Shown piece by piece: positions 2,373 through 19,662 of a DNA stretch of 64,000 nt (position 1 is its first letter; each line of letters starts with the position of its first letter). The notes under the pieces were generated by a model that was given only the letters and a program-made list of their open reading frames with translations, searched no databases and had not been told where the DNA came from. Source of the stretch: a bacterium (GTDB taxonomy: Bacteria; UBA8248); NCBI GenBank assembly GCA_963692865.2, contig OY843592.1, positions 2,976,001 through 3,040,000 of the forward strand, written 5' to 3'. The position numbers and the translations under genes are program-made.

Positions 2373-3368
2373 ATGAAAGCGATTACCGTCCAGGGAGACG
2401 CCGGAATCGAAGGACTCGTGTACGGCGAGGTACCCACGCCGGATCCGGGAGAGGGCGAGGTGCGAGTCCGCCTCCTGGCTTCGGGCATCAACCACATCGA
2501 CGTATACCAGTGCACCCCCGCCATGGTGCGCCACGACAAGCCCCATACCATGGGAGCGGACGGAGCGGGCGTCGTCGATAAGGCGGCGCCGGACGCGGCC
2601 TTGAAACCGGGTGATGAGGTCGTCGTGGACCCCAACCTGTGCGACCCAACGAAACCGGGTTACGGCATCGTCGGCGCGCACTGTGCGGGCACGCACGCGG
2701 AGTTCATTGTGCTTCCTGAGAAGAATTTCTTTCCCAAGCCCGGGAACCTTTCCTTCGAGGAGGCGGCGGCGCTTCCCCTCGCCCTTTGCACGGCCTATCG
2801 CCAGCTCATCAGCCGCGCCAGACTCAAGTCGGGTGAGAGCGTACTCATCCACGGGGTGGGCGGCGGCGTCATGCTCTATTGCCTGCAACTCGCCGCGCAG
2901 GCGGGCGCCTTCACCATCGTCACCTCATCGAGCGAGGAGAAGCTGGAAACCGCCAAATCCTTCGGCGCCGACGTCTGCATCAATTACAAAACGGGGGACG
3001 TCGCCGGAGCCGTGATGGAGGCCACCGATGGCCAGGGGGCCGACGTGGTGGTCGACAACGTGGGCGCTCCAACTTTCGCGCTGAGCGCCAAGTGCGTCGC
3101 GCTGAACGGGCGCATCACCATCGTGGGCGGGGCGGCGCACCACGTAATCCCCGAAGTGAACCTGCGCGATCTCTACTTCAAACAGGTGGACATCCACACC
3201 TCCACCATGGCGACGCCCGAGGAATTCAGCGCGGCGATGGCCCTCGCCGCCGAGGGGAAGATAAATGCCCACATCGATTCCACTTATCCCCTCTCCCGGT
3301 TCCGCGAGGCCATCGGGCGCGTGGCGAAGGGCGAACAGTTTGGAAAAGTCGTGATAACAAGAGATTAG
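2373..3368 (+). CDS. MDR-family zinc-binding dehydrogenase / quinone oxidoreductase
   Basis: GINHID, HTMGADGAGVV, VLIHGVGGGV, QFGKVVI. Confidence 0.88.
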   Translation: MKAITVQGDAGIEGLVYGEVPTPDPGEGEVRVRLLASGINHIDVYQCTPAMVRHDKPHTMGADGAGVVDKAAPDAALKPGDEVVVDPNLCDPTKPGYGIVGAHCAGTHAEFIVLPEKNFFPKPGNLSFEEAAALPLALCTAYRQLISRARLKSGESVLIHGVGGGVMLYCLQLAAQAGAFTIVTSSSEEKLETAKSFGADVCINYKTGDVAGAVMEATDGQGADVVVDNVGAPTFALSAKCVALNGRITIVGGAAHHVIPEVNLRDLYFKQVDIHTSTMATPEEFSAAMALAAEGKINAHIDSTYPLSRFREAIGRVAKGEQFGKVVITRD

Positions 3369-3436
3369 GAGCAAGACGCCCGCGCCGCACTCTCACCATT
3401 CGCGCGGAGCCATCAATTTCGGAGAATGCCTAAAAC

Positions 3437-4585
3437 ATGAAAAGACACCTCGCCAAGACCGTCGCCGCGACTGCAGGTGGAGAGCGCGCCAATCACATGA
3501 CGGCCAGGAAACCGCCGGGCCTGGTGCCGCTCGATTCGGGAACGCCCAACTTCCCCACGCCGGAGCACATTACGGAAGCCGCCAAGGAGGCGCTCGACCA
3601 GGGTCTCACGGGCTACGCGCCCGGACAGGGAGACCCGGAATTCCTCGAAGCCGTATGCGAACACGTCGAGCGAGAGGCGAACGCGAAATACACGCCCCAC
3701 TCCGTCATCGCCACGAACGGGGCGAGTTCGGGCATCTACGCCGTCATGACGGCGTTCCTGGACCCGGGCGATGAGGCCATCCTGATGGACCCCACGTTTT
3801 CCCTCTACGCCCACGTCGCGCTTCAACTCGGAGCCGTTCCCGTCCAGGTGCCCCACGATGCGGACTACCAGATCGACGTAGAGGCCGTGCGCCGCGCCAT
3901 CACGCCGCGCACGCGCCTCATTCTCGTCAACAACCCGAACAACCCCACCGGCGTGGTTTACCGGCGCGAAGATCTGGCGGCCCTCGCCGGACTCGCCACG
4001 GAGCACGACCTCATGCTCGTATCGGACGAGGCCTATGCGAAGATACTGCAGCCCGGCTTCGAGCACGTTCCCCTGCTCTCGTTCACCGAACACAGGGACA
4101 GCCTCATCCTGCTCGACACTTTTTCCAAGACCTATTCGATGACCGGCTGGCGTCTGGGCTTCATGGTCTTGCCCGAAGACCTGCCCCAGCCGATGTTCAG
4201 CGTGCACCGCTCCATCAACGGGCCGATCAACACCTTCGTCCAGCGCGCGGGAGCGGCTGCGCTCAGGGGTTCTCAGGAGTGCGTGGCGGAGTTCAGGCGC
4301 GAGTACCACAAGCGGGGCCGCCTCATGAACGAGATGACGCGCGATATTCCCGGTCTCATTCCCATCGAGCCCCAGGGCGGCTTCTACCAATACTGCCGCT
4401 ATGAATACCCCATTCCATCGAGTGAGGTGCGAAAGCGCGTCTGGGAGGCCGGGGCGGCGATTCGCAGCGGGTCGGAGTTCGGCGCTTCGGGCGAGAACCA
4501 TTTGCGCTTCACCTATTCGGTAAATGAGGATGTCATCGAAAAAGGCATGAAGATCGTGGGCGAGGTCTTCCGCCACCTGGGCTGA
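3437..4585 (+). CDS. PLP-dependent aminotransferase class I/II
   Basis: NNPNNPTG, SDEAY, TFSKTYSMTGWRLG, HLRFTY. Confidence 0.92.
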   Translation: MKRHLAKTVAATAGGERANHMTARKPPGLVPLDSGTPNFPTPEHITEAAKEALDQGLTGYAPGQGDPEFLEAVCEHVEREANAKYTPHSVIATNGASSGIYAVMTAFLDPGDEAILMDPTFSLYAHVALQLGAVPVQVPHDADYQIDVEAVRRAITPRTRLILVNNPNNPTGVVYRREDLAALAGLATEHDLMLVSDEAYAKILQPGFEHVPLLSFTEHRDSLILLDTFSKTYSMTGWRLGFMVLPEDLPQPMFSVHRSINGPINTFVQRAGAAALRGSQECVAEFRREYHKRGRLMNEMTRDIPGLIPIEPQGGFYQYCRYEYPIPSSEVRKRVWEAGAAIRSGSEFGASGENHLRFTYSVNEDVIEKGMKIVGEVFRHLG

Positions 4586-4623
4586 GGCTTGTCCGTTCCG
4601 CGCTTGAAGGCCGTCCTTTTGAG

Positions 4624-4996
4624 GGGGCTGTTGAAAAAGCCGCCCTGCGCAACCCGCCAATCCGCCTGACCCTGAATAGCGGCCCTTCGACAGCCTCAGG
4701 ACAGGCTCCCTCGACTTCGCTCGGGGCAGGCTCCGCCGTCCCCCCACCTTCCTCACCCTGAGTAGCCGCCGGAGGTCAAGCGCGACTGAGAAAGGAGCGT
4801 TTGTATCGAAGGGCGAACCAGAGAAACGCGCCCCCCATCCTTCGATACGCGGCTTCGCCGCTACTCAGGATGAGGGTTTGGGGCCGGCCGGGAAGGAAAC
4901 GCCTTAAGGGGCGTCGCTACCTTTCTCTCCGAGGCGGTGCGGTTTTGTTCACGGCGGTGGTCAATAGCGAGCGAGATGAGGTTTTTCAACAATCCC
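4624..4996. mobile_element. MITE-like element with REP-like cargo
   Basis: ggggctgttgaaaaa (4624) ... tttttcaacaatccc (4996); contains cccttcgacagcctcagg and convergent family B pair 4751-4875. Confidence 0.65.
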
Positions 4997-12106: not shown

Positions 12107-12790
12107 ATGTCGAACCAGGCAAGCGAAACCAGCAAAATCCGGCTGCTCGACCCCGATGCGGCGGCGGGTGATACGGCGCGTTTCTTCGAGGCGACGCGCG
12201 AGTTTCTGGGACGCATCCCCAATTCCGCGCTCGCAATGGCGAACACGCCCTACATCGCGCGCTTCTACCTCCCCTTCAACGCCACGCTCCAGCGCGAGGG
12301 CATGGGCGGTCTGCTGACCTGCAAGATAAAGGAGATCGTGGTTCTCAAGACGAGCTTCGTGAATTCTTGCGCCTACTGAATCGCGCACAACACGGCGCTT
12401 GGTCAAGCGACGGGAATCACGGATGAGCAGATCGAGGCCATCGCCTCGGACGATTACATGACCTCCCCCCTTTTAAGTCCGCGCGAGCGCGCCGCCTGCC
12501 TGTGGGCGGAGCATTTTACGCGAAACACCGCGCGCGAGAACCCGGACGTGCTCGAAGAGGTGAAGCGGCATTTCACCGATGGCGAGATCGTCGAGATGTC
12601 TCTCATGAGCGGCAAGCAGAGCATGATGAACCGCTTCATGGACTCGTTCGCCATCCCCATTGAGGACGAGGGCGAGGTGAACAAGATCAAAAAATCTGTG
12701 CGCGGGAATCCCGACAAGATGAAGGCGTATCTCCAGGCGCTCATCGACAACTGGCCCGAGGAGTTCCCCGAACCCAACCCGGATGAATAG
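12107..12790 (+). CDS. AhpD/carboxymuconolactone decarboxylase-like peroxidase, probable selenoprotein (UGA 12377-12379 = Sec, CxxU)
   Basis: ORFs 12107-12379 and 12458-12790 share a frame; read-through gives KEIVVLKTSFVNSCAY-U-IAHN...GITDEQI, matching the AhpD E..NxCxxCxxH motif. Confidence 0.85.
12392..12412 (+). promoter_or_regulatory. Putative bacterial SECIS hairpin
   Basis: CGCTT-GGTC-AAGCG (12396-12409); G-starting apical loop begins 21 nt after the UGA. Confidence 0.65.
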
Positions 12791-12817: not shown

Positions 12818-13852
12818 CTACAAATAATCCCGTACTGCCACAGTCCGTCCCATGCGCGAACTCGCGTCCGCCGCGAAGACGACGGCGAGGTTCTCGTGCG
12901 CGACGCGGCCGTCCACCTCGGGCGTTCTGTCTCCGCGCACGCAGTCGGCGAAATCCTCGAGCGCGTCTCGGAACATGTCCCCCTCGGGCACCTCGTATAC
13001 GGCGTCTTCGCCCAGCGGATCCCTGTCGACGTGGAGGCGGATGGGTTCCGGCGCCTTGGAAGGGTCGCGCCACTGCTGGCCCGTGATGCGGAAGTGCGCG
13101 ACGCCCTTCGTGCCGTGCACGTTCATGTGAAACGCCCAGGGACACGCCCAGCCCCCGCCGACGTAGGAGAGCGCGCCGCTCTCGTGCTCGAGAATCATCA
13201 TCGAGGTGTCGTCCACGTCCTCGGTCGCATAGGCGCGCTTGAGCCTGGCGGTGACGTTTTTAATCGGACCGTGCAGGTAGCGGAACGTGTCGATGTGGTG
13301 GATGGACAGCTGGATGACGACGCCGGTGGGGTTGAGCTCCCGGCTCGAGCGCCACTTCTCGGGCGTGAGTTCCAGCCCCCGCTCGGTGCAGAAGTTGCTC
13401 TCGCTCATCGAGATTTTTCCAATTTCACCCGCGTCTATCAGCTCCTTCATGCGCCTCGATACGGCCAGTCGGCGCGCGCTGTGGCCCACCGCCAGCTTGA
13501 CGCCCGCGCCCTCGGCCGCATCCACGATGGCCCGGGAGTGCTCCAGGCTGTGCGCGATGGGCTTTTCGCAGTAGACGTGCTTGCCCGCGGCGGCCAGGGC
13601 CTCGATGTGCTCCTTGTGGTTGTGGTTGGGCGTCGTGAGGATGACGGCCTCGACCTCATCGTCATTCAGCAGCGCATCCAGGCTATCCGCCTCGCGCGCG
13701 CCGTAGCGCTCCATGAAGGCGCCGCGTTTTTCCGCTGTGCGGCTGAAGCACGAGACGAGCCGGATTTTGCCTCCACGGAGCGCTGCGTCTGCGAGCACGT
13801 TGGCCCAGCGGCCCAGCCCCATCGAGGCGACGCGCACGGGTTCGAACGACAT
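12818..13852 (-). CDS. Gfo/Idh/MocA family oxidoreductase
   Basis: GLGRWA Rossmann motif, TPNHNH, AGKHVYCEKP, IHHID. Confidence 0.92.
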   Translation of the reverse strand: MSFEPVRVASMGLGRWANVLADAALRGGKIRLVSCFSRTAEKRGAFMERYGAREADSLDALLNDDEVEAVILTTPNHNHKEHIEALAAAGKHVYCEKPIAHSLEHSRAIVDAAEGAGVKLAVGHSARRLAVSRRMKELIDAGEIGKISMSESNFCTERGLELTPEKWRSSRELNPTGVVIQLSIHHIDTFRYLHGPIKNVTARLKRAYATEDVDDTSMMILEHESGALSYVGGGWACPWAFHMNVHGTKGVAHFRITGQQWRDPSKAPEPIRLHVDRDPLGEDAVYEVPEGDMFRDALEDFADCVRGDRTPEVDGRVAHENLAVVFAADASSRMGRTVAVRDYL

Positions 13853-13953
13853 GTTGTTTTCTCCTCGGGAAATTGTAAGTCGGTGGATTAGCGGAATCCG
13901 ATATTCATCAGGGCGAGCGAAACTCTGAAAAACTCCACGATATCAAGCCTGCG

Positions 13954-14412
13954 CTAGATACTCACCTGGAAATTGGGCAAGCGCACGCCCGCCGCCGGAT
14001 CCACCGGGGCCGCGCTCAATTCATCGAGCGTTGTGTTGCGCAGCGTCTCGTCTATCGCGTCTTCGAGTTTTTTCCACAAGGCGCGGCTTCCGCATACCGG
14101 AATGTTCGGACACGGCGACGAGGGAGGCTCATCGCCGCAATCGACGGGCTGAATCGTCTCCCCCACCGCGGAGAGAACGTCGCGCATGTTGATATCAGAA
14201 GGCGGCAGCGCGAGGATGTAGCCGCCCCCCGGCCCCCGCGTACTGCTCACCAGAGAGGCCCTGCGCATCTTCACGAACAACTGTTCGAGATAGTGCTGGC
14301 TGATTCCGAGCCTGCCGGCTATCTGGGGCAAGGGCACGGGATGCGTCTGCGAATGCCTCGCCAGCTCTATCATGGCGAGCACGGCGTATCGCCCCTTGGT
14401 CGATATTTTCAT
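13954..14412 (-). CDS. Rrf2 family regulator, IscR/CymR-like with three Cys
   Basis: MKISTKGRYA, YLEQLF, STRGPGGGY, C-x8-C-x5-C. Confidence 0.92.
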   Translation of the reverse strand: MKISTKGRYAVLAMIELARHSQTHPVPLPQIAGRLGISQHYLEQLFVKMRRASLVSSTRGPGGGYILALPPSDINMRDVLSAVGETIQPVDCGDEPPSSPCPNIPVCGSRALWKKLEDAIDETLRNTTLDELSAAPVDPAAGVRLPNFQVSI

Positions 14413-14443
14413 CGGCGGCGTCCTCTCATCTCACGTCTAAGCC

Positions 14444-15184
14444 TCATGGCTGAACGAGCGCTCCCCGCCTCGTGGGGATTTTCGTTTGCTCACTCCCGGC
14501 GAGCGCGCAGACGGGGCAATCCGGATCCCGGGCCACACGTACGCTCCCGGCGGTGTTTTTCCACAAATCGGCCGTCATCAGCCTGTTCGACCAGGCCGGC
14601 TCAAGCCCCCCGAGAACACGCAGCGCATCTGCGGCCTGCGCCATGCCCACGAAACCGGCCACCGCGCCGAAAACGCCCGCATCCCCGCAGTCGAGGCCGC
14701 GCGCGTCAGCGCCCTCCTCGCCCACCAGGCAGCGCAGGCAGGCGCTCTCACAGGGCAGAATCGTCATCACCTGCCCGAAAAAGCGCAAGACGCCTCCCAT
14801 GACCCACGGCGTCCCGGCCGCGATGCAGGCGTCGTTAAGAATGAGCTTGGTCGTCAAATTGTCGCTTCCATCGATCACGACGTCATAAGGCGCGATGATC
14901 CGGGCGACATTCTCGCGCGTGATTTTCTGGGGAATCTTGTCCACCGCTACTTCGGTGGACAGCCTGAATATGGAATCAGCGCCCGAGTCGACTTTTAGAC
15001 GGCCGATGTCTTCGGTTCGATGGAGAATCTGGCGCGCCAGGTTGTCGAGCGTCACGGCGTCGTGATCGGCAAGCCCGATACGCCCCACGCCGGAAGCAGC
15101 CAGCGCCAGCGCCGCGGGGCAGCCCAGGCCGCCGACGCCCACAATGAGTGCGGACGAACGCGCCAGAGCGCTCTCATCACTCAT
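14444..15184 (-). CDS. ThiF/MoeB adenylyltransferase (E1-like), catalytic motifs intact, N-terminal Arg-finger segment absent
   Basis: GVGGLG, ADHD, DNLARQ, K, DGSDN, CLRC, DCGDAG, CPVC; ATG 15184 after GAGGAG overlapping the JAMM gene stop. Confidence 0.9.
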   Translation of the reverse strand: MSDESALARSSALIVGVGGLGCPAALALAASGVGRIGLADHDAVTLDNLARQILHRTEDIGRLKVDSGADSIFRLSTEVAVDKIPQKITRENVARIIAPYDVVIDGSDNLTTKLILNDACIAAGTPWVMGGVLRFFGQVMTILPCESACLRCLVGEEGADARGLDCGDAGVFGAVAGFVGMAQAADALRVLGGLEPAWSNRLMTADLWKNTAGSVRVARDPDCPVCALAGSEQTKIPTRRGALVQP

Positions 15185-15675
15185 GCGCCCGCCTCCTCGA
15201 ATATCTCCAGATCGCTTTCGATGAAGGTTTTTTGCTCCGCGTCCCAGGAATACACCTTCTGGCCGATAACGGCGCCTTCGCGCACGCTCATGACGACGTG
15301 CTCGGCATCCGGAAACGCCGGAATATCCCCGAAAGGAACCGCCGCATCCACGTCTTCCTGTGAAAAATAGGCGTCCTCGTCCGGGTGGCTGTGAAAGATG
15401 CCGCGAACCATCTCGCCCGCCTCCTCGGCGCGCCTCACGATGCGCTCGAACTCGAACGGGTCGATCAAAAAGGCGCGCCTCGCCGTCCGGGGATAGATTT
15501 CCGGGTCCTTCTCGTGCATCTCGTTCTGCACGTTCTTGCAGGGCAGAAGAGCGAGGGTTTCTTCCGCGTTCCCTCTCGCGCGCGGAGGCCCGATGATCAA
15601 ACCGCAGCACTCATCGGGATACGCCTCGCGCGCGTGGCGGTGCATCGCTTCCACCTGGTCACGATTCAGACGCAA
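15181..15675 (-). CDS. JAMM/MPN+ metallopeptidase (M67, Mec-like)
   Basis: YPDECCG and HSHPDEDAYFSQED = E...HxH-x7-S-x2-D. Confidence 0.92.
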   Translation of the reverse strand: MRLNRDQVEAMHRHAREAYPDECCGLIIGPPRARGNAEETLALLPCKNVQNEMHEKDPEIYPRTARRAFLIDPFEFERIVRRAEEAGEMVRGIFHSHPDEDAYFSQEDVDAAVPFGDIPAFPDAEHVVMSVREGAVIGQKVYSWDAEQKTFIESDLEIFEEAGA

Positions 15676-15686
15676 ATCAAGTCCCC

Positions 15687-16625
15687 TTAGCGCGCCTCGC
15701 TCAAGTACCTGTCCCCTCCGTCGGGAAACAGGGTGACGATGACGCCCTTTCCTATCTGCTTCGCCACCTCGCGCACGCCAACGAGCGCGGCGCCCGCCGA
15801 GTGGCCGATGAACAGGCCCTCTTCTTTGGCGATGCGATCGGCGAGATCGTAGCTCTCCTCGGTACCCGCCGGGATCAGGTGGTCGTGTACGCTCTCATCG
15901 TAAATCCCCGGGCGTATGGCCGTCGGGATGTGCTTCATTCCTTCCAACCCGTGAAACGATTCTGACGGCATGACCGCATGAACCACGACGTCCGGTTTCC
16001 TTGCTTTCAATCCGCGCCCCGTGCCCACCAGCGTGCCCGTGGTGCCGAGACCCGCGGCGAAGTGCTCCGCGCGCCCGTCGGTCTGTTCCAGAATCTCGAC
16101 CGCCGTCGTCTCGACGTGAGCGAGCGGGTTGGCGGGGTTGTCATACTGGCACGGCAGGAAATACTTCTCCGGCTCCTCGTGGTGCATCTTCGCCGCGAGG
16201 CGCTGCGCCCCGTCCGAACCCTCCAGGGGGTCCGAGAGAATAATGTCGGCCCCATAGCCCTTGAGCGTCGCCTTGCGCTCGTCGCTCGCGTTCGCGGGTA
16301 GCACGAGACGGACGGGAATCCCCAAAGCCGCGCCTATCATGGCGTAGGCGATACCGGTGTTCCCGCTCGTGGAATCAAGCAGAATTTTCCCGGGTCTCAA
16401 TTCTCCCGTTTCCAGTCCGTCCTTCACCATGAAGAGCGCCGGCCTGTCCTTCACCGAGCCGCCCGGGTTGAACCACTCCGCCTTGGCGTAGACCTCCACT
16501 TCCGGGAATTCGCTCTCGAACAACTTGATTTCGAGCAGGGGGGTGTTGCCGATACACTTGATTATCGGGGAATCCCCTAGATTTCTGAACGCGCTCGCGG
16601 GATTCTCCACCGTCGATTCGACCAT
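15687..16625 (-). CDS. cysM: Cysteine synthase, CysM-like
   Basis: IGNTPL, NPGGSVKDR, TSGNTG, QYDNPAN, GLGTTGT, LEGMKH, PDGGDRYLS. Confidence 0.85.
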   Translation of the reverse strand: MVESTVENPASAFRNLGDSPIIKCIGNTPLLEIKLFESEFPEVEVYAKAEWFNPGGSVKDRPALFMVKDGLETGELRPGKILLDSTSGNTGIAYAMIGAALGIPVRLVLPANASDERKATLKGYGADIILSDPLEGSDGAQRLAAKMHHEEPEKYFLPCQYDNPANPLAHVETTAVEILEQTDGRAEHFAAGLGTTGTLVGTGRGLKARKPDVVVHAVMPSESFHGLEGMKHIPTAIRPGIYDESVHDHLIPAGTEESYDLADRIAKEEGLFIGHSAGAALVGVREVAKQIGKGVIVTLFPDGGDRYLSEAR

Positions 16626-16658
16626 TGGTATGGCCCTCGCACTTGGCTCCTGAAAACT

Positions 16659-17309
16659 TCAGGAAAGGTTCGCACGCGCCTCAATCAAGCCATGCGAAAA
16701 ATCGAAACGGGCCTGCGCAGTCGACCCCACCGTATCCGTCTCATCCACCAGATGCCGCAAGACCCGTGCGGCCAGCCATGCGCCCAATGCGCCCCGGGCC
16801 GCCACAGTTGATGCTTCCCCTCCACCAGAGGACGCCCCTGTTTGAGCGAAGGAGCGGGGGCGCTCTGAAATCTCTCCCGCCTCACCACGGGATACGCCTC
16901 GGATGAGGAATTTTCCCGCTCCCTTGAAAGCCTCCAGGTCTCCTGCGGACTCATCGCCCAGCCAGACGAGGACGTCGAAAACCTCTTCCGCACCCTCACC
17001 CGGGCGAACGGGAACCAGCCTCGAATCGGGATTGAGTCTCTTGAGGCCGTTTCCCAGGCAGCCGCCATAGAGAGCGGAGAGCGGCGATTTTTGCCTGATT
17101 CCATCGTCCTCATCGAGCGGACACCAGCCGATTCGTCCCACGCCTGCTGCGGCCAGATACGCCAGGGCCATGAGCGCCGCGCTTTCCTCATCCTCCGAAT
17201 ATGCGATGAGGACGGAAGAAGCCAAAAGACGCTCCTGCCCGGCTCCTCCCACACCGGGGAGCAAAATGTGTCGGCTGTAGCGCTGAATCTGCTCTTCGCT
17301 CAGACCCAA
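16659..17309 (-). CDS. Degenerate ThiF/MoeB-fold protein (predicted inactive adenylation domain)
   Basis: MoeB-like N-terminus LSEEQIQRYSRHILLPGVGGAGQERL, YLAAAGVGRI and LKRLNPD retained; GxGxxG, NLxRQ, DxxDN and both CxxC absent; TTG start with GAGGAG. Confidence 0.8.
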   Translation of the reverse strand: MGLSEEQIQRYSRHILLPGVGGAGQERLLASSVLIAYSEDEESAALMALAYLAAAGVGRIGWCPLDEDDGIRQKSPLSALYGGCLGNGLKRLNPDSRLVPVRPGEGAEEVFDVLVWLGDESAGDLEAFKGAGKFLIRGVSRGEAGEISERPRSFAQTGASSGGGEASTVAARGALGAWLAARVLRHLVDETDTVGSTAQARFDFSHGLIEARANLS

Positions 17310-17343
17310 GGGGCGACTCTCCTCTCAGGCGTTCTGCGGGCGA

Positions 17344-17622
17344 TTAGCGGCCCCCCGCGATGGCCGGTACAATGGAAACCTCATCCCCGTCGCTCACCGC
17401 CGTTCCCTCGCCCTGCAGGAAGCGGATGTCCTCCTGGTTCACGTAAATGTTCACGAAGCGGCGCAACTTGCCCTCTTCGTCATAGAGGCGCTGGCCGATG
17501 CCCGCAAACTGGTCGTCGAGGTTTGCGAGCACTTCCTTCACGTCCGCGCCAGCTATCTCCACGGTGTCCTGCTGCTGGGTGAACTCCTGCAAAGGTGTCG
17601 GGATACGAACCGTTACCGCCAT
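17344..17622 (-). CDS. MoaD/ThiS-family ubiquitin-like sulfur carrier (CysO/SAMP1-like), ends GG-R
   Basis: VRIPTPL, LRRFVNIYVN.EDIRFL, DGDEVSIVPAIAGG-R. Confidence 0.93.
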   Translation of the reverse strand: MAVTVRIPTPLQEFTQQQDTVEIAGADVKEVLANLDDQFAGIGQRLYDEEGKLRRFVNIYVNQEDIRFLQGEGTAVSDGDEVSIVPAIAGGR

Positions 17623-17675
17623 TTCTGTCTCCTGATCTGAAAGCCCGGCCTTCCGGGGATGCCGAATTAAGATTC

Positions 17676-18635
17676 CTAACGAAAATGCTGCTCCAGACTA
17701 TAATATCTCTCCCAGCCGTCGGGAACGACGACCACCACGTTTTCCTCGGGACTCATCCGCCGCGCCACCTGCAGGGCGGCACTTACCGCCGCTCCAGCCG
17801 AAATGCCCGCGGCCATGCCCTCCTCGCGACTCAGGGCCTTGCTCATGTCGTAGGCGTCCGAATCGCTCACCTGCATCACCTCGTCGATGATCGCGCGGTT
17901 CAACACCGAGGGAATGAATCCCGCGCCGATTCCCTGAATCTGGTGCGGGCCGGGCTCTCCGCCCGAGAGAACGGGGGATGCGGCGGGCTCCACGCCGACG
18001 ACGAGCGTTTCGGGCCTCCTCTCCTTCAGCACTTCTCCCACTCCCGTAATGGTGCCTCCCGTCCCCACGCCCGCCACGAAGGCGTCCACCGATTCCGCGC
18101 CCATGTCGCGCAGAATCTCGCGCGCCGTGGTTCTGCGGTGGATTTCCGGGTTGGCCGGATTGTTGAACTGCTGTGGCATGAAGTAATCCGGGTTCTCCTC
18201 CAAAATGGCTTCGGCCATCACGAGGGAACCGTACATGCCGCCCTCGCTGGAGCTGAAGATCACCTCGGCCCCGTAGCCCGTGAGCAGGGAGTGGCGCTCA
18301 TGGCTCATGCTCTTGCTGAGCACGATGATCGTCCTGTAGCCGCGAATGGCGCCGATAAGCGCGAGGCCTATCCCCGTGTTGCCGCTCGTGGGTTCGATGA
18401 TCGTTCCACCGGCCTTCAGGAGGCCGCGCCGCTCGCCGTCCAGCACCATGCTGAGCGCGATGCGATCCTTCACGCTTCCGCCGGGGTTGTACTGTTCGAG
18501 CTTCGCGAACACGCGCGCGCCGGACGCATCGGGCAGGCGCTGGAGCCTGACGAGGCTCGTGCTCCCGATGCGATCGACGAGCGAGGGAAGCGCCCTCAGA
18601 ATCTGGGGCGGGCGGCCCCGGGTGCCCAATGCCAT
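17676..18635 (-). CDS. cysK: Cysteine synthase A
   Basis: NPGGSVKDRIA, EPTSGNTG, QQFNNPAN, GVGTGGT, HQIQGIGAGFIP. Confidence 0.92.
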   Translation of the reverse strand: MALGTRGRPPQILRALPSLVDRIGSTSLVRLQRLPDASGARVFAKLEQYNPGGSVKDRIALSMVLDGERRGLLKAGGTIIEPTSGNTGIGLALIGAIRGYRTIIVLSKSMSHERHSLLTGYGAEVIFSSSEGGMYGSLVMAEAILEENPDYFMPQQFNNPANPEIHRRTTAREILRDMGAESVDAFVAGVGTGGTITGVGEVLKERRPETLVVGVEPAASPVLSGGEPGPHQIQGIGAGFIPSVLNRAIIDEVMQVSDSDAYDMSKALSREEGMAAGISAGAAVSAALQVARRMSPEENVVVVVPDGWERYYSLEQHFR

Positions 18636-18680
18636 GAGAGTGCCTTTCCAAAGCGATTTGCGTGGATCCAGCCGAGCGTG

Positions 18681-18713
18681 AGACTATAATTCCCAAACAA
18701 AATTGTCAAGAAT
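18681..18713 (-). promoter_or_regulatory. Promoter of the cysK operon overlapped by an IscR type-1-like operator
   Basis: Minus strand TTGACA (18709-18704)-N17-TAGTCT; 25-mer ATTCTTGACAATTTTGTTTGGGAAT (18713-18689) resembles ATASYYGACTRwwwYAGTCRRSTAT. Confidence 0.55.
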
Positions 18714-18840
18714 TCCACGTTAAAGCCTTTTTCCGTTTTTTCTCTTTTGGACATATTCTCGACATACTCCCAATATCTTCGCGGTGTGCTACATTCTCAT
18801 AACGCATCGTCTTATGATGCGGCGCAAGAAGGAGGAAGAC

Positions 18841-19662
18841 ATGACGAAATCCGGGAGCCCTCCCCCCATCGCCCTGACGATAGCGGGTTCGGACTCGGGC
18901 GGCGGGGCAGGGATCCAGGCCGATATCAAGACCTTCAGCGCGTTCGGCGTCTACGGCGCTTCGGTCATCACCGCGCTGACGGCGCAAAACACCGTGGGCG
19001 TGCAGGGGGTGCACGCCGCGCCCCTCGATTTCATCGCGGCGCAATTCGACTCGGTGTGCGCGGATTTGGACGTGGCGAGCGCGAAAATCGGCATGCTCGC
19101 CACGGTCGACGTCATCGAGGTCGTGGCCGAAAAGCTCAAGGAACACGCGCTTGCGCGCGTCGTGCTCGATCCGGTGATGGTCGCCAAAAGCGGCGACCGT
19201 CTCCTTGCGCCCGACGCCAGAGGTGCGCTCGTCGAAAAACTCTTCCCGCTCGCCGAGGTCGTCACCCCCAACACGGAGGAGGCGCGCGAGATTCTCCAAA
19301 CCGGAGAAATCGAAAACCTCGCTCAGATGAAGGACGCCGCCCGGGCCCTCCATGAGCGGGGGGCGAAATGCGTTCTGCTCAAAGGAGGCCACATCACCGA
19401 CGGGGCGGTGGACATTTTTTTCGACGGAGAAAACGAGATCGCCCTCGATGGCAGGCGCATCGACACCCCCCACACCCACGGCACGGGCTGCACGCTCTCA
19501 TCAGCCATCGCGGCGGGGCTGTCGCTGGGAGAGTCCACCATCGAAGCGGCGAGAAGGGCGAAAGATTTCATTCAGGGCGCCATCGAGAACGCGCTCGCCA
19601 TCGGAAACGGCAGAGGCCCGCTCAACCACATGTACCGCCAGCACGAGGAAAAATCGCCGTGA
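18841..19662 (+). CDS. thiD: Hydroxymethylpyrimidine/phosphomethylpyrimidine kinase
   Basis: [48 protein letters not shown]. Confidence 0.96.

Follow-up and report, generated by a model that had tools for sequence, protein, structure and literature searches.

Complementary ThiF/MoeB paralogues in a bacterial sulfur-carrier operon suggest an asymmetric, heterodimeric E1-like enzyme

Organization of the locus

The window analysed here is a 64,000-nucleotide stretch of the genome of a bacterium of the GTDB lineage UBA8248 (assembly GCA_963692865.2, contig OY843592.1; G000:C1:2976001-3040000, where G000 is the source genome). On its minus strand lies a tightly packed operon of seven genes, with intergenic gaps of -4 to 53 bases, that encodes in transcription order a cysteine synthase of the CysK type, a ubiquitin-like protein (Ubl), a degenerate ThiF/MoeB-fold protein (paralogue A), a cysteine synthase of the CysM type, a JAMM peptidase, a ThiF/MoeB adenylation-domain protein (paralogue B) and an Rrf2-family regulator (Table 1). 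An earlier note on this DNA proposed that A, which has lost the catalytic motifs and keeps an N-terminal arginine helix, and B, which has the motifs and lacks the helix, form an obligate heterodimer with a single active site that activates the co-encoded Ubl, in the manner of the ubiquitin-activating enzymes (E1s) of eukaryotes. Both open reading frames (ORFs) lie on the minus strand where that note had placed them.

Paralogue B is a ThiF domain without the arginine helix

Paralogue B scores 214 bits against the Pfam ThiF model (PF00899; cut-off 28.1, E 2e-63), with profile positions 17-238 of 238 aligned and positions 1-16 unmatched, and it matches solved MoeB and ThiF chains at 138-146 bits over its residues 4-229. 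In the alignment to the MoeB chain 1jw9_B, residue 4 of B falls on MoeB residue 26, so that MoeB residues 1-22, Arg14 among them, have no counterpart. The protein begins at about the equivalent of MoeB residue 23, and the RYxRQ helix, which bears the arginine supplied in trans (R14 in MoeB, R11 in ThiF), is absent. B residues R51, K64, D108 and C166 correspond to R73, K86, D130 and C187 of MoeB, and the P-loop glycines G16, G18 and G21, together with R51, K64, D108 and the cysteine pairs C149/C152 and C223/C226, are identical in all 13 orthologues. B retains its dimer helix in full, along with the two CxxC zinc motifs. B aligns with MoeB and ThiF without a long insertion, that is, without the inserted catalytic-cysteine domain of canonical E1s, and Pfam finds a ThiF domain only and no rhodanese domain.

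The ATG codon of B overlaps the stop codon of the JAMM gene as ATGA and is preceded by GAGGAGG, while the longer in-frame ORF, with a GTG start upstream at position 15610, extends into the JAMM gene and contains no RYxR. The description of B given in the earlier note, as a protein with the ThiF/MoeB catalytic motifs that starts short of the arginine helix, behind a ribosome-binding site, with an ATGA overlap and with no RYxR upstream in frame, is therefore upheld. The truncation is conserved. In none of the 11 B orthologues examined does the upstream frame contain RYxR[QH], and each has a start codon 11-18 codons ahead of the P-loop; in four of them a stop codon closes the open frame 11-23 residues before that loop. 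A canonical paralogue on locus L034 served as positive control for this search and shows the motif. A frameshift or misplaced start for B was considered and rejected on these grounds, namely the overlap with the JAMM gene, the missing RYxR and the closed frame in the four relatives.

Paralogue A is a degenerate ThiF fold that retains the helix

Paralogue A starts at a TTG codon behind the stretch GAGAGGAGAG. It keeps an RYSRH N-terminal helix (R10, R13), the YLAAAGVG strand-helix unit, LNPD, a dimer helix (about residues 169-188) and a family-specific C-terminal VGSTxQARFD motif. No Pfam model matches it at E 0.01; at E 10 the ThiF model gives 13.6 bits (cut-off 28.1) and covers only residues 11-61 against profile positions 1-48, and the NCBIfam MoeB, MoeZ and UbaA models match residues 3-69 only, far under their cut-offs. 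Residues 2-70 align with the N-termini of solved Uba4 (E 4e-7), ThiF (E 0.0024) and MoeB (E 0.0054) chains, placing R13 at MoeB R14 and ThiF R11; MoeB 4-64 aligns with A 3-66, and the sole displayed gap is at the P-loop. In the Uba4 alignment an acidic stretch, three residues longer, stands in the place of GxGGxG, and NLxRQ, DxxDN and CxxC are missing from the translation. None of the A-family members P0058-P0068 has NLxRQ, DxxDN or CxxC, and a loose P-loop pattern, G.G[GA].G, matches two of them (P0062 and P0063). The alignments and the translation thus agree with the earlier note in both its claims, that A keeps the MoeB N-terminus with R13 at the position of Arg14 and that its GxGGLG loop is replaced and the remaining motifs lost.

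Profile-profile alignment (hhalign) of the A and B families is collinear over A 26-196 and B 5-192 (probability 92.4%, E 5e-7). Helix 171-188 of A aligns with the B helix, which in turn aligns with the MoeB helix quoted in the earlier note, and the correspondence drawn there between the A and MoeB helices holds with B as intermediate. The AlphaFold model of A has a mean predicted local distance difference test (pLDDT) score of only 70.7, with 57-73 over the first 20 residues. A Foldseek search with this model returns ThiF, Uba4 and MoeB at the top (E 2e-8 to 2e-7; template modelling score by query, TMq, about 0.6), and SAE1 and APPBP1 chains at E 2e-6 to 1e-5. Paralogue A is a ThiF fold over its whole length despite the lost motifs, and the likeness is beyond chance.

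Across 23 A sequences there are 27 invariant columns, including R10, Y11, S12, H14, L16, L17, P18, parts of the dimer helix and the C-terminal motif. R10 is present in all 23 and R13 in 22. The length of A in the close set is 213-219 residues.

Conservation of the pair in Nitrospinota

Close relatives of A, where named, belong to Nitrospinae or Nitrospinota. Full-length A occurs in 30 of 51 Nitrospinota genomes, down to about 40% identity, and 29 of the 30 also have a B orthologue (54-100% identity); in the exception, G021, the contig bearing A is about 3.2 kb long and does not extend to the position of B. A genome from another family of the order (G009) has fragments of both genes at contig ends. 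The remaining 20 genomes, two of which are complete genomes of the same genus, have neither A nor B, and their best match to B is a 34-40% identical rhodanese-MoeB protein that is present in every genome. The order cysK-Ubl-A-cysM-JAMM-B-Rrf2 is the same in 10 of 10 loci spanning the cluster, and two split loci agree with it. These 51 genomes are kin and A and B share an operon, so the counts describe conservation and not independent events.

One genome, G029, has two A/B clusters on separate contigs (C6:34271-37208 and C8:827277-830214). Its contamination estimate is 16%, and the double cluster may reflect two organisms in one bin.

The ratio of nonsynonymous to synonymous substitution rates (dN/dS) is 0.21-0.45 for A in every one of 10 pairs; B gives 0.12-0.25 and cysM 0.05-0.18. 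A is under purifying selection; it is also the fastest-evolving gene of the operon, with 40% identity where cysM has 75% and B 56%. The earlier note had suggested that related genomes be surveyed for the two genes and that dN/dS be estimated for A; they co-occur in Nitrospinota with constant gene order, and neutral evolution of A is not seen.

A predicted A-B complex

A complex of A and B only was modelled, each chain with its own alignment, in three runs with three controls. The interaction prediction score from aligned errors (ipSAE) was 0.95, 0.96 and 0.96, and the best control reached 0.00; of 80 solved complexes 58 reach the ipSAE mark applied, as do 2 of 110 mismatched pairs. The runs have no fewer than 94% of their contacts in common, and partner pLDDT is at least 88. 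The predicted interface is the classical MoeB/ThiF dimer face, in which helix 164-185 of A packs against B 167-189 and the C-terminal strands of the two proteins pair. It also includes A residues 6, 9-14, 16-18 and 20, and B residues 46-58, the NLxRQ loop around R51. The earlier note had proposed to model A and B together with the Ubl; the model of A with B passes its controls and has A 9-14 within the predicted interface.

The conserved positions of A are concentrated at this face. Of the 50 positions of A that are at least 90% conserved, 23 fall in the 58-residue predicted interface (of 216 residues in all; odds ratio 3.2, Fisher p 7e-4), and the enrichment persists with residues 1-30 excluded.

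Pairs outside Nitrospinota

The A-family profile was searched against 1.84 billion representatives, and the classes given here are those of the best 150. The A family proper comprises eight proteins at E 1e-30 or better. Of the 150, 82 have the RYxR[QH] helix but neither P-loop nor NLxRQ; there are 51 canonical and 12 mixed proteins, and the remaining 5 are without the helix motif. At least 190 residues are present in 42 of the 82 degenerate proteins, and some of the short ones may be fragments. NCBIfam holds no model dedicated to degenerate A-like proteins.

In the collection of species genomes, six loci outside Nitrospinota have a degenerate A-like gene, two in Binatia (L064, L095) and four in Myxococcota/"delta" genomes (L060, L063, L079, L081). 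All six have a B-like ThiF gene without RYxRQ and a CysO-like Ubl gene within a few kb, accompanied by cysM in five and by a JAMM gene in three. In five of these six B-like genes the nearest candidate start lies 9-23 codons ahead of the P-loop; for the one in L079, the 61 upstream residues read contain no RYxR[QH]. A separate full-length ThiF protein of about 400 residues is present in all five of the non-Nitrospinota genomes searched. The Myxococcota/"delta" A-like proteins (L060 5001-5480, L063, L081 5001-5399) are about 130-180 residues long and lack the C-terminal half and CxxC, and those of Binatia are about 200-250 residues long and keep two CxxC. The degree of decay of A varies by lineage; the N-terminal helix, the first strand-helix unit and a C-terminal helix are kept in all versions.

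Fused relatives

Three long proteins among the best 150 representatives (P0132, P0250 and P0186) are each a single chain in which an A-like domain precedes a B-like one. The P0250-type family belongs to Clostridia, with proteins of about 460 residues; the search for it returned 37 clusters (P0250, P0385-P0420), one a piece of 363 residues and the other 36 of 433-490 residues, and the statistics given for the family refer to these 36. Its names include a cultured Gudongella isolate, and all members are annotated just as "ThiF family adenylyltransferase". The N-terminal domain matches the A family (probability 99.4%, E 2e-21) and the C-terminal domain the B family (100%, E 1.5e-64, residues 3-228 aligned to 3-228). 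In none of 35 proteins does the C-terminal domain have its own RYxRQ.

The AlphaFold model of the fusion has a pLDDT of 81.6 and a predicted template modelling score (pTM) of 0.87, with residues 1-19 below 50. Both of its domains can be aligned with the bacterial E1 BilD (8tyz_A, the match with the best TM-score; TMq 0.69, and by target, TMt, 0.64) and with UBA1, UBA6 and UBA7, and the C-terminal domain alone superposes on MoeB with TMt 0.85. No other single argument for A-like and B-like domains working as one pseudodimer is as strong as the fusion, with its sequence and its model.

A second type of fusion (P0132/P0266) is rare, with two full-length clusters among 120 listed. On the sole recovered locus of this type, a 4.9-kb metagenome contig (L116), the P0266 fusion gene (3038-4387) follows a histidine kinase gene and overlaps the start of a gene for a ThiI-like PP-loop ATPase (4308-4868). 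No cysM or Ubl gene occurs within those 4.9 kb; fusions of this type are thus not tied to cysteine operons, and the context hints at sulfur transfer of the tRNA or thiamine type rather than cysteine synthesis.

The remaining genes of the operon

The other members of the operon are listed with A and B in Table 1. The cysK and Rrf2 genes hold identical positions in 10 of 10 complete relative loci. A Ubl with a C-terminal GG, a CysM-type enzyme of the pyridoxal phosphate (PLP)-dependent class and a JAMM peptidase are all encoded in the operon, and membership in CysO-type cysteine synthesis is assigned at the family level only, because the equivalog cut-offs for cysM and SAMP1 were missed. No gene for an E2-like (ubiquitin-conjugating) protein was found among the seven genes with Pfam and NCBIfam.

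Table 1. Genes of the seven-gene operon, in transcription order.
Feature	Length (residues)	Coordinates	Strand	Evidence
cysK-type cysteine synthase, first operon gene	319	17676..18635	-	Pfam PALP E 8e-77; NCBIfam TIGR01139 cysK 400.5 bits, cut-off 350.95 exceeded
ThiS/MoaD/CysO-like sulfur-carrier Ubl	92	17344..17622	-	Pfam ThiS E 1.5e-17; NCBIfam SAMP1 55.6 bits, slightly below cut-off 60
Paralogue A, catalytically dead ThiF/MoeB-fold protein	216	16659..17309	-	N-terminal family match, profile-profile alignment, fold model
cysM-type cysteine synthase	312	15687..16625	-	Pfam PALP E 3e-61; best NCBIfam TIGR01138 cysM E 6e-101, 337.8 bits, under cut-off 394.2
JAMM/MPN+ (Mec-like, Prok-JAB) metallopeptidase	164	15181..15675	-	Pfam Prok-JAB E 7e-20; NCBIfam desampylase E 5e-11, under cut-off
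Paralogue B, ThiF/MoeB adenylation domain	246	14444..15184	-	Pfam ThiF E 2e-63
Rrf2-family regulator, last gene of conserved cluster	152	13954..14412	-	Pfam Rrf2 E 4e-37

The Ubl of the window ends in AIAGG followed by one extra arginine. Among 19 orthologues (L021-L035, L060-L095) the sequence SIVPAIAGG is strictly conserved; in 17 of them a tail of varying sequence, 1-10 residues long, comes after it, and two end at GG. The tails include R, L, G, C, H, K, VG, TGAPI and one of 10 residues. Such variability fits trimming by the JAMM peptidase, and the sequences suggest that processing before activation is the rule.

A scan of positions 13700-19000 for promoters and terminators gave sites no more numerous than in shuffled sequences. 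Four sequencing runs, all from one study, were listed as containing the DNA of positions 14400-18700, with no RNA run among those listed. Divergent from the cysK end of the operon is a gene for ThiD (phosphomethylpyrimidine kinase; 18784-19662, plus strand), which places thiamine and cysteine genes side by side. Two short plus-strand ORFs of 90 and 110 residues (12107-12379 and 12458-12790), with 78 bases between them and no Pfam match, may represent a pair of small genes or a single gene that has been split.

Interpretation and alternatives

Motif complementarity and its conservation, the linkage of the genes, the fused homologue and the confident dimer model are all computational observations, and together they make it likely that A and B form an asymmetric heterodimer of the MoeB/ThiF type, in which a single active site adenylates the Ubl. 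The central idea of the earlier note, that a dead, arginine-keeping A and an active, arginine-less B share one active site for the co-encoded Ubl, accordingly gains predictive support from their co-occurrence, the conserved truncation of B, selection on A, the model of the complex, and the pairs and fusions found elsewhere. From these we infer that the dimer would form in the cell and be needed for activity.

Several observations weigh against this reading. In the portion available of a 2026 study of yeast Tcd1-Tcd2 (PMC13139853), the arginine fingers of MoeB (R14) and ThiF (R11) are reported to be non-essential, TcdA is described as having none, and mutation of the Arg59 donated by Tcd1 had hardly any effect; by analogy, B might work without a donated arginine. 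R13 is replaced by histidine in one of the 23 A-family sequences, and of the 36 P0250-type fusions 25 have the equivalent arginine and 11 another residue there; the first arginine of the motif is kept in 35. In the single-chain models of both A and the fusion, confidence is lowest for the N-terminal helix, and the interface of the complex is given as residue lists, one for each chain. Given the non-essential fingers, the loss of the arginine in fusions and the low confidence in the helix, we hold the heterodimer to be likely and the arginine not necessarily to be what A contributes: what A supplies, in place of a single guanidinium group, may be the helix as a lid or simply the other half of the dimer.

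The score of the modelled complex may also owe something to memory of solved structures; MoeB and ThiF homodimers are among these, so the result shows likeness and is not proof, and since the pair scored was A with B only, it leaves room for a B homodimer beside the heterodimer. A evolves about twice as fast as B, and the co-occurrence of the two is expected for any two genes of one operon, whatever their function. When the A-like protein of L064 was used as query against 81 genomes of its phylum, a full-length match was obtained in one, the source genome itself, and in the rest the match was confined to the N-terminal 57-73 residues, which is also what canonical ThiF proteins give. With one fast-evolving query, which makes a weak probe, this shows at most a patchy distribution of the pair outside Nitrospinota.

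Three other explanations were considered. B alone could form a symmetric homodimer that needs no arginine in trans, with A an accessory that holds the Ubl, docks CysM or a sulfur donor, or regulates B. The dispensable finger of MoeB and ThiF and its absence from TcdA (as given in the available part of PMC13139853), the whole dimer helix and both zinc motifs in B, and the missing arginine in 11 of the 36 fused relatives are all in keeping with this. However, the fused family places A-like and B-like domains on one chain that is modelled as an E1-like pseudodimer, conserved positions of A lie at the predicted dimer face with B, and the segment lost by every B orthologue examined is the one kept by every A; we therefore regard a B homodimer as rather unlikely.

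It is hardly credible that A is a functionless, decaying MoeB duplicate carried along in the operon. Such a duplicate might well escape Pfam, lose all its catalytic motifs and be the fastest-evolving gene, as A does, but A remains intact and of constant length (the 213-219 residues of the close set) in 30 genomes and to about 40% identity, its dN/dS range holds in all 10 pairs with 27 columns invariant across 23 sequences, and related degenerate genes and a fusion occur in other phyla. A could also pair with itself or with the housekeeping rhodanese-MoeB protein, and so modulate molybdopterin or tRNA sulfur flux instead of acting on the operon's Ubl. The source genome does have a full-length paralogue of the same dimer-helix family about 1.1 Mb from the operon (G000:C1:1865356-1866555; L117 1356-2555, minus strand), with a rhodanese domain, a full ThiF domain (profile 1-238) and its own RYSRH helix. 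That arginine helix, the presence of the paralogue in the 20 genomes without A, the constant place of A between the Ubl gene and cysM, two genes before B, and the fusions that join A-like to B-like domains argue against this, and we consider it very improbable. A third ThiF-family match in the genome (C1:3482297-3482710, L118) covers profile positions 8-143.

If, as we prefer, A and B act as a heterodimer, the following course may be proposed. The JAMM peptidase would trim the residue or residues after the GG of the Ubl, and the A-B dimer would take one Ubl on B, which as the sole catalytic subunit would bind ATP and Mg and adenylate the C-terminal glycine. A, without nucleotide-binding and zinc motifs, would replace the second protomer through the central dimer helix and pair its C-terminal strands with those of B; because it has no catalytic motifs and stands as the second protomer, there would be one active site per dimer. 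The RYSRH helix of A, the very segment gone from the chain of B, would be laid in trans across B, bearing the arginine of the MoeB Arg14 type. B has no rhodanese domain; a sulfur donor encoded outside the operon would make the Ubl thiocarboxylate, from which CysM would form a Ubl-cysteine adduct and the JAMM enzyme would free cysteine. Thiocarboxylation, the CysM step and cysteine release are proposed by analogy with the mycobacterial pathway and operon type 4c (see below).

Comparison with known systems

Bacterial MoeB and ThiF are textbook symmetric homodimers, and the division into inactive and active partners is treated as a step towards the eukaryotic E1s. In fold and adenylation motifs B resembles the E. 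coli MoeB-MoaD and ThiF-ThiS systems (PDB 1JW9/1JWA, 1ZUD), and the Ubl is a relative of ThiS and MoaD. The dimer helix of MoeB and ThiF and the N-terminal arginine acting in trans (R14 and R11; PMC13139853, in the part available) are the elements that appear split between A and B. Whereas each MoeB or ThiF chain has both helix and catalytic motifs and the homodimer two active sites, in A and B these lie on two products and a single active site is predicted. The SUMO and NEDD8 enzymes SAE1-UBA2 and NAE1/APPBP1-UBA3 are, like A and B, separate inactive and active adenylation paralogues. In contrast to eukaryotic E1s, the A/B operon has no catalytic-cysteine domain, ubiquitin-fold domain or E2 gene, and its Ubl would be a sulfur carrier for cysteine synthesis and not a protein modifier. 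A common origin of A/B and eukaryotic E1s is neither shown nor needed.

Asymmetric E1s have bacterial precedent. In BilD (PDB 8TYZ) an inactive N-terminal domain is reported to supply Arg9 to an active C-terminal adenylation domain (PMC10557695, available sections), and the two are fused in a single chain (same sections; PMC11354881). As a prokaryotic parallel to the eukaryotic E1 layout, A/B is thus not the first of its kind; BilD precedes it. They differ in that BilD is one chain with an inserted CYS domain, an E2 partner and a role in phage defence, whereas A and B are two genes without a CYS insertion in a metabolic operon. The same sections of the 2023 BilD preprint describe all other known bacterial E1-like proteins as homodimers (PMC10557695), and BubCD is a homodimer (PMC11601596). 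In yeast, the tRNA dehydratase Tcd1-Tcd2, which makes cyclic N6-threonylcarbamoyladenosine (ct6A), is a ThiF-family heterodimer in which the degenerate Tcd1 gives the Arg59 finger to its active partner (PMC13139853, as far as its available text goes). Unlike A/B it is eukaryotic and its substrate is tRNA rather than a Ubl, and the dispensability of its finger cautions against an arginine-centred reading.

The mycobacterial CysO-CysM-Mec pathway with MoeZ comprises a carrier, a cysteine synthase, a peptidase and an E1-like enzyme. A similar set, of a ThiS/MoaD-like carrier, a JAB peptidase, a cysteine synthase and an E1-like enzyme, was described as operon type 4c by Iyer, Burroughs and Aravind in 2006 (PMC1779556), and the accessible part of that account mentions no second, inactive E1-like gene. 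The E1-like enzyme of the mycobacterial and type 4c systems is one full-length protein fused to rhodanese, whereas here the operon E1 is N-terminally cut, has no rhodanese domain and has a dead paralogue beside it. The operon type is already known, and asymmetric E1s are known in eukaryotes, in BilD and in yeast Tcd1-Tcd2; our searches of the open-access literature turned up no bacterial sulfur-carrier system described as having a two-gene inactive/active ThiF pair or a simple fused form.

Significance

Annotation pipelines will label B a complete MoeB and miss A. We lean, on the strength of sequence comparison and models, towards a broader view, in which A-B represents a widespread, unrecognised class of prokaryotic asymmetric E1-like enzymes, encoded by two genes in Nitrospinota, Binatia and Myxococcota and fused in Clostridia, that would work as obligate pseudo-symmetric dimers with a single active site on sulfur-carrier Ubls. 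Recognizing such a class would give a role to many proteins whose present label is no more than "ThiF family" or "hypothetical". It would also offer a simple, expressible model for why E1s became asymmetric, be it through half-of-sites activity, control of Ubl loading, or the helix and arginine acting in trans. If this is true, the division into inactive and active adenylation domains, regarded as a hallmark of eukaryotic E1s and known so far among bacteria from the defence enzyme BilD alone, would have arisen in plain sulfur metabolism, before or independently of protein conjugation.

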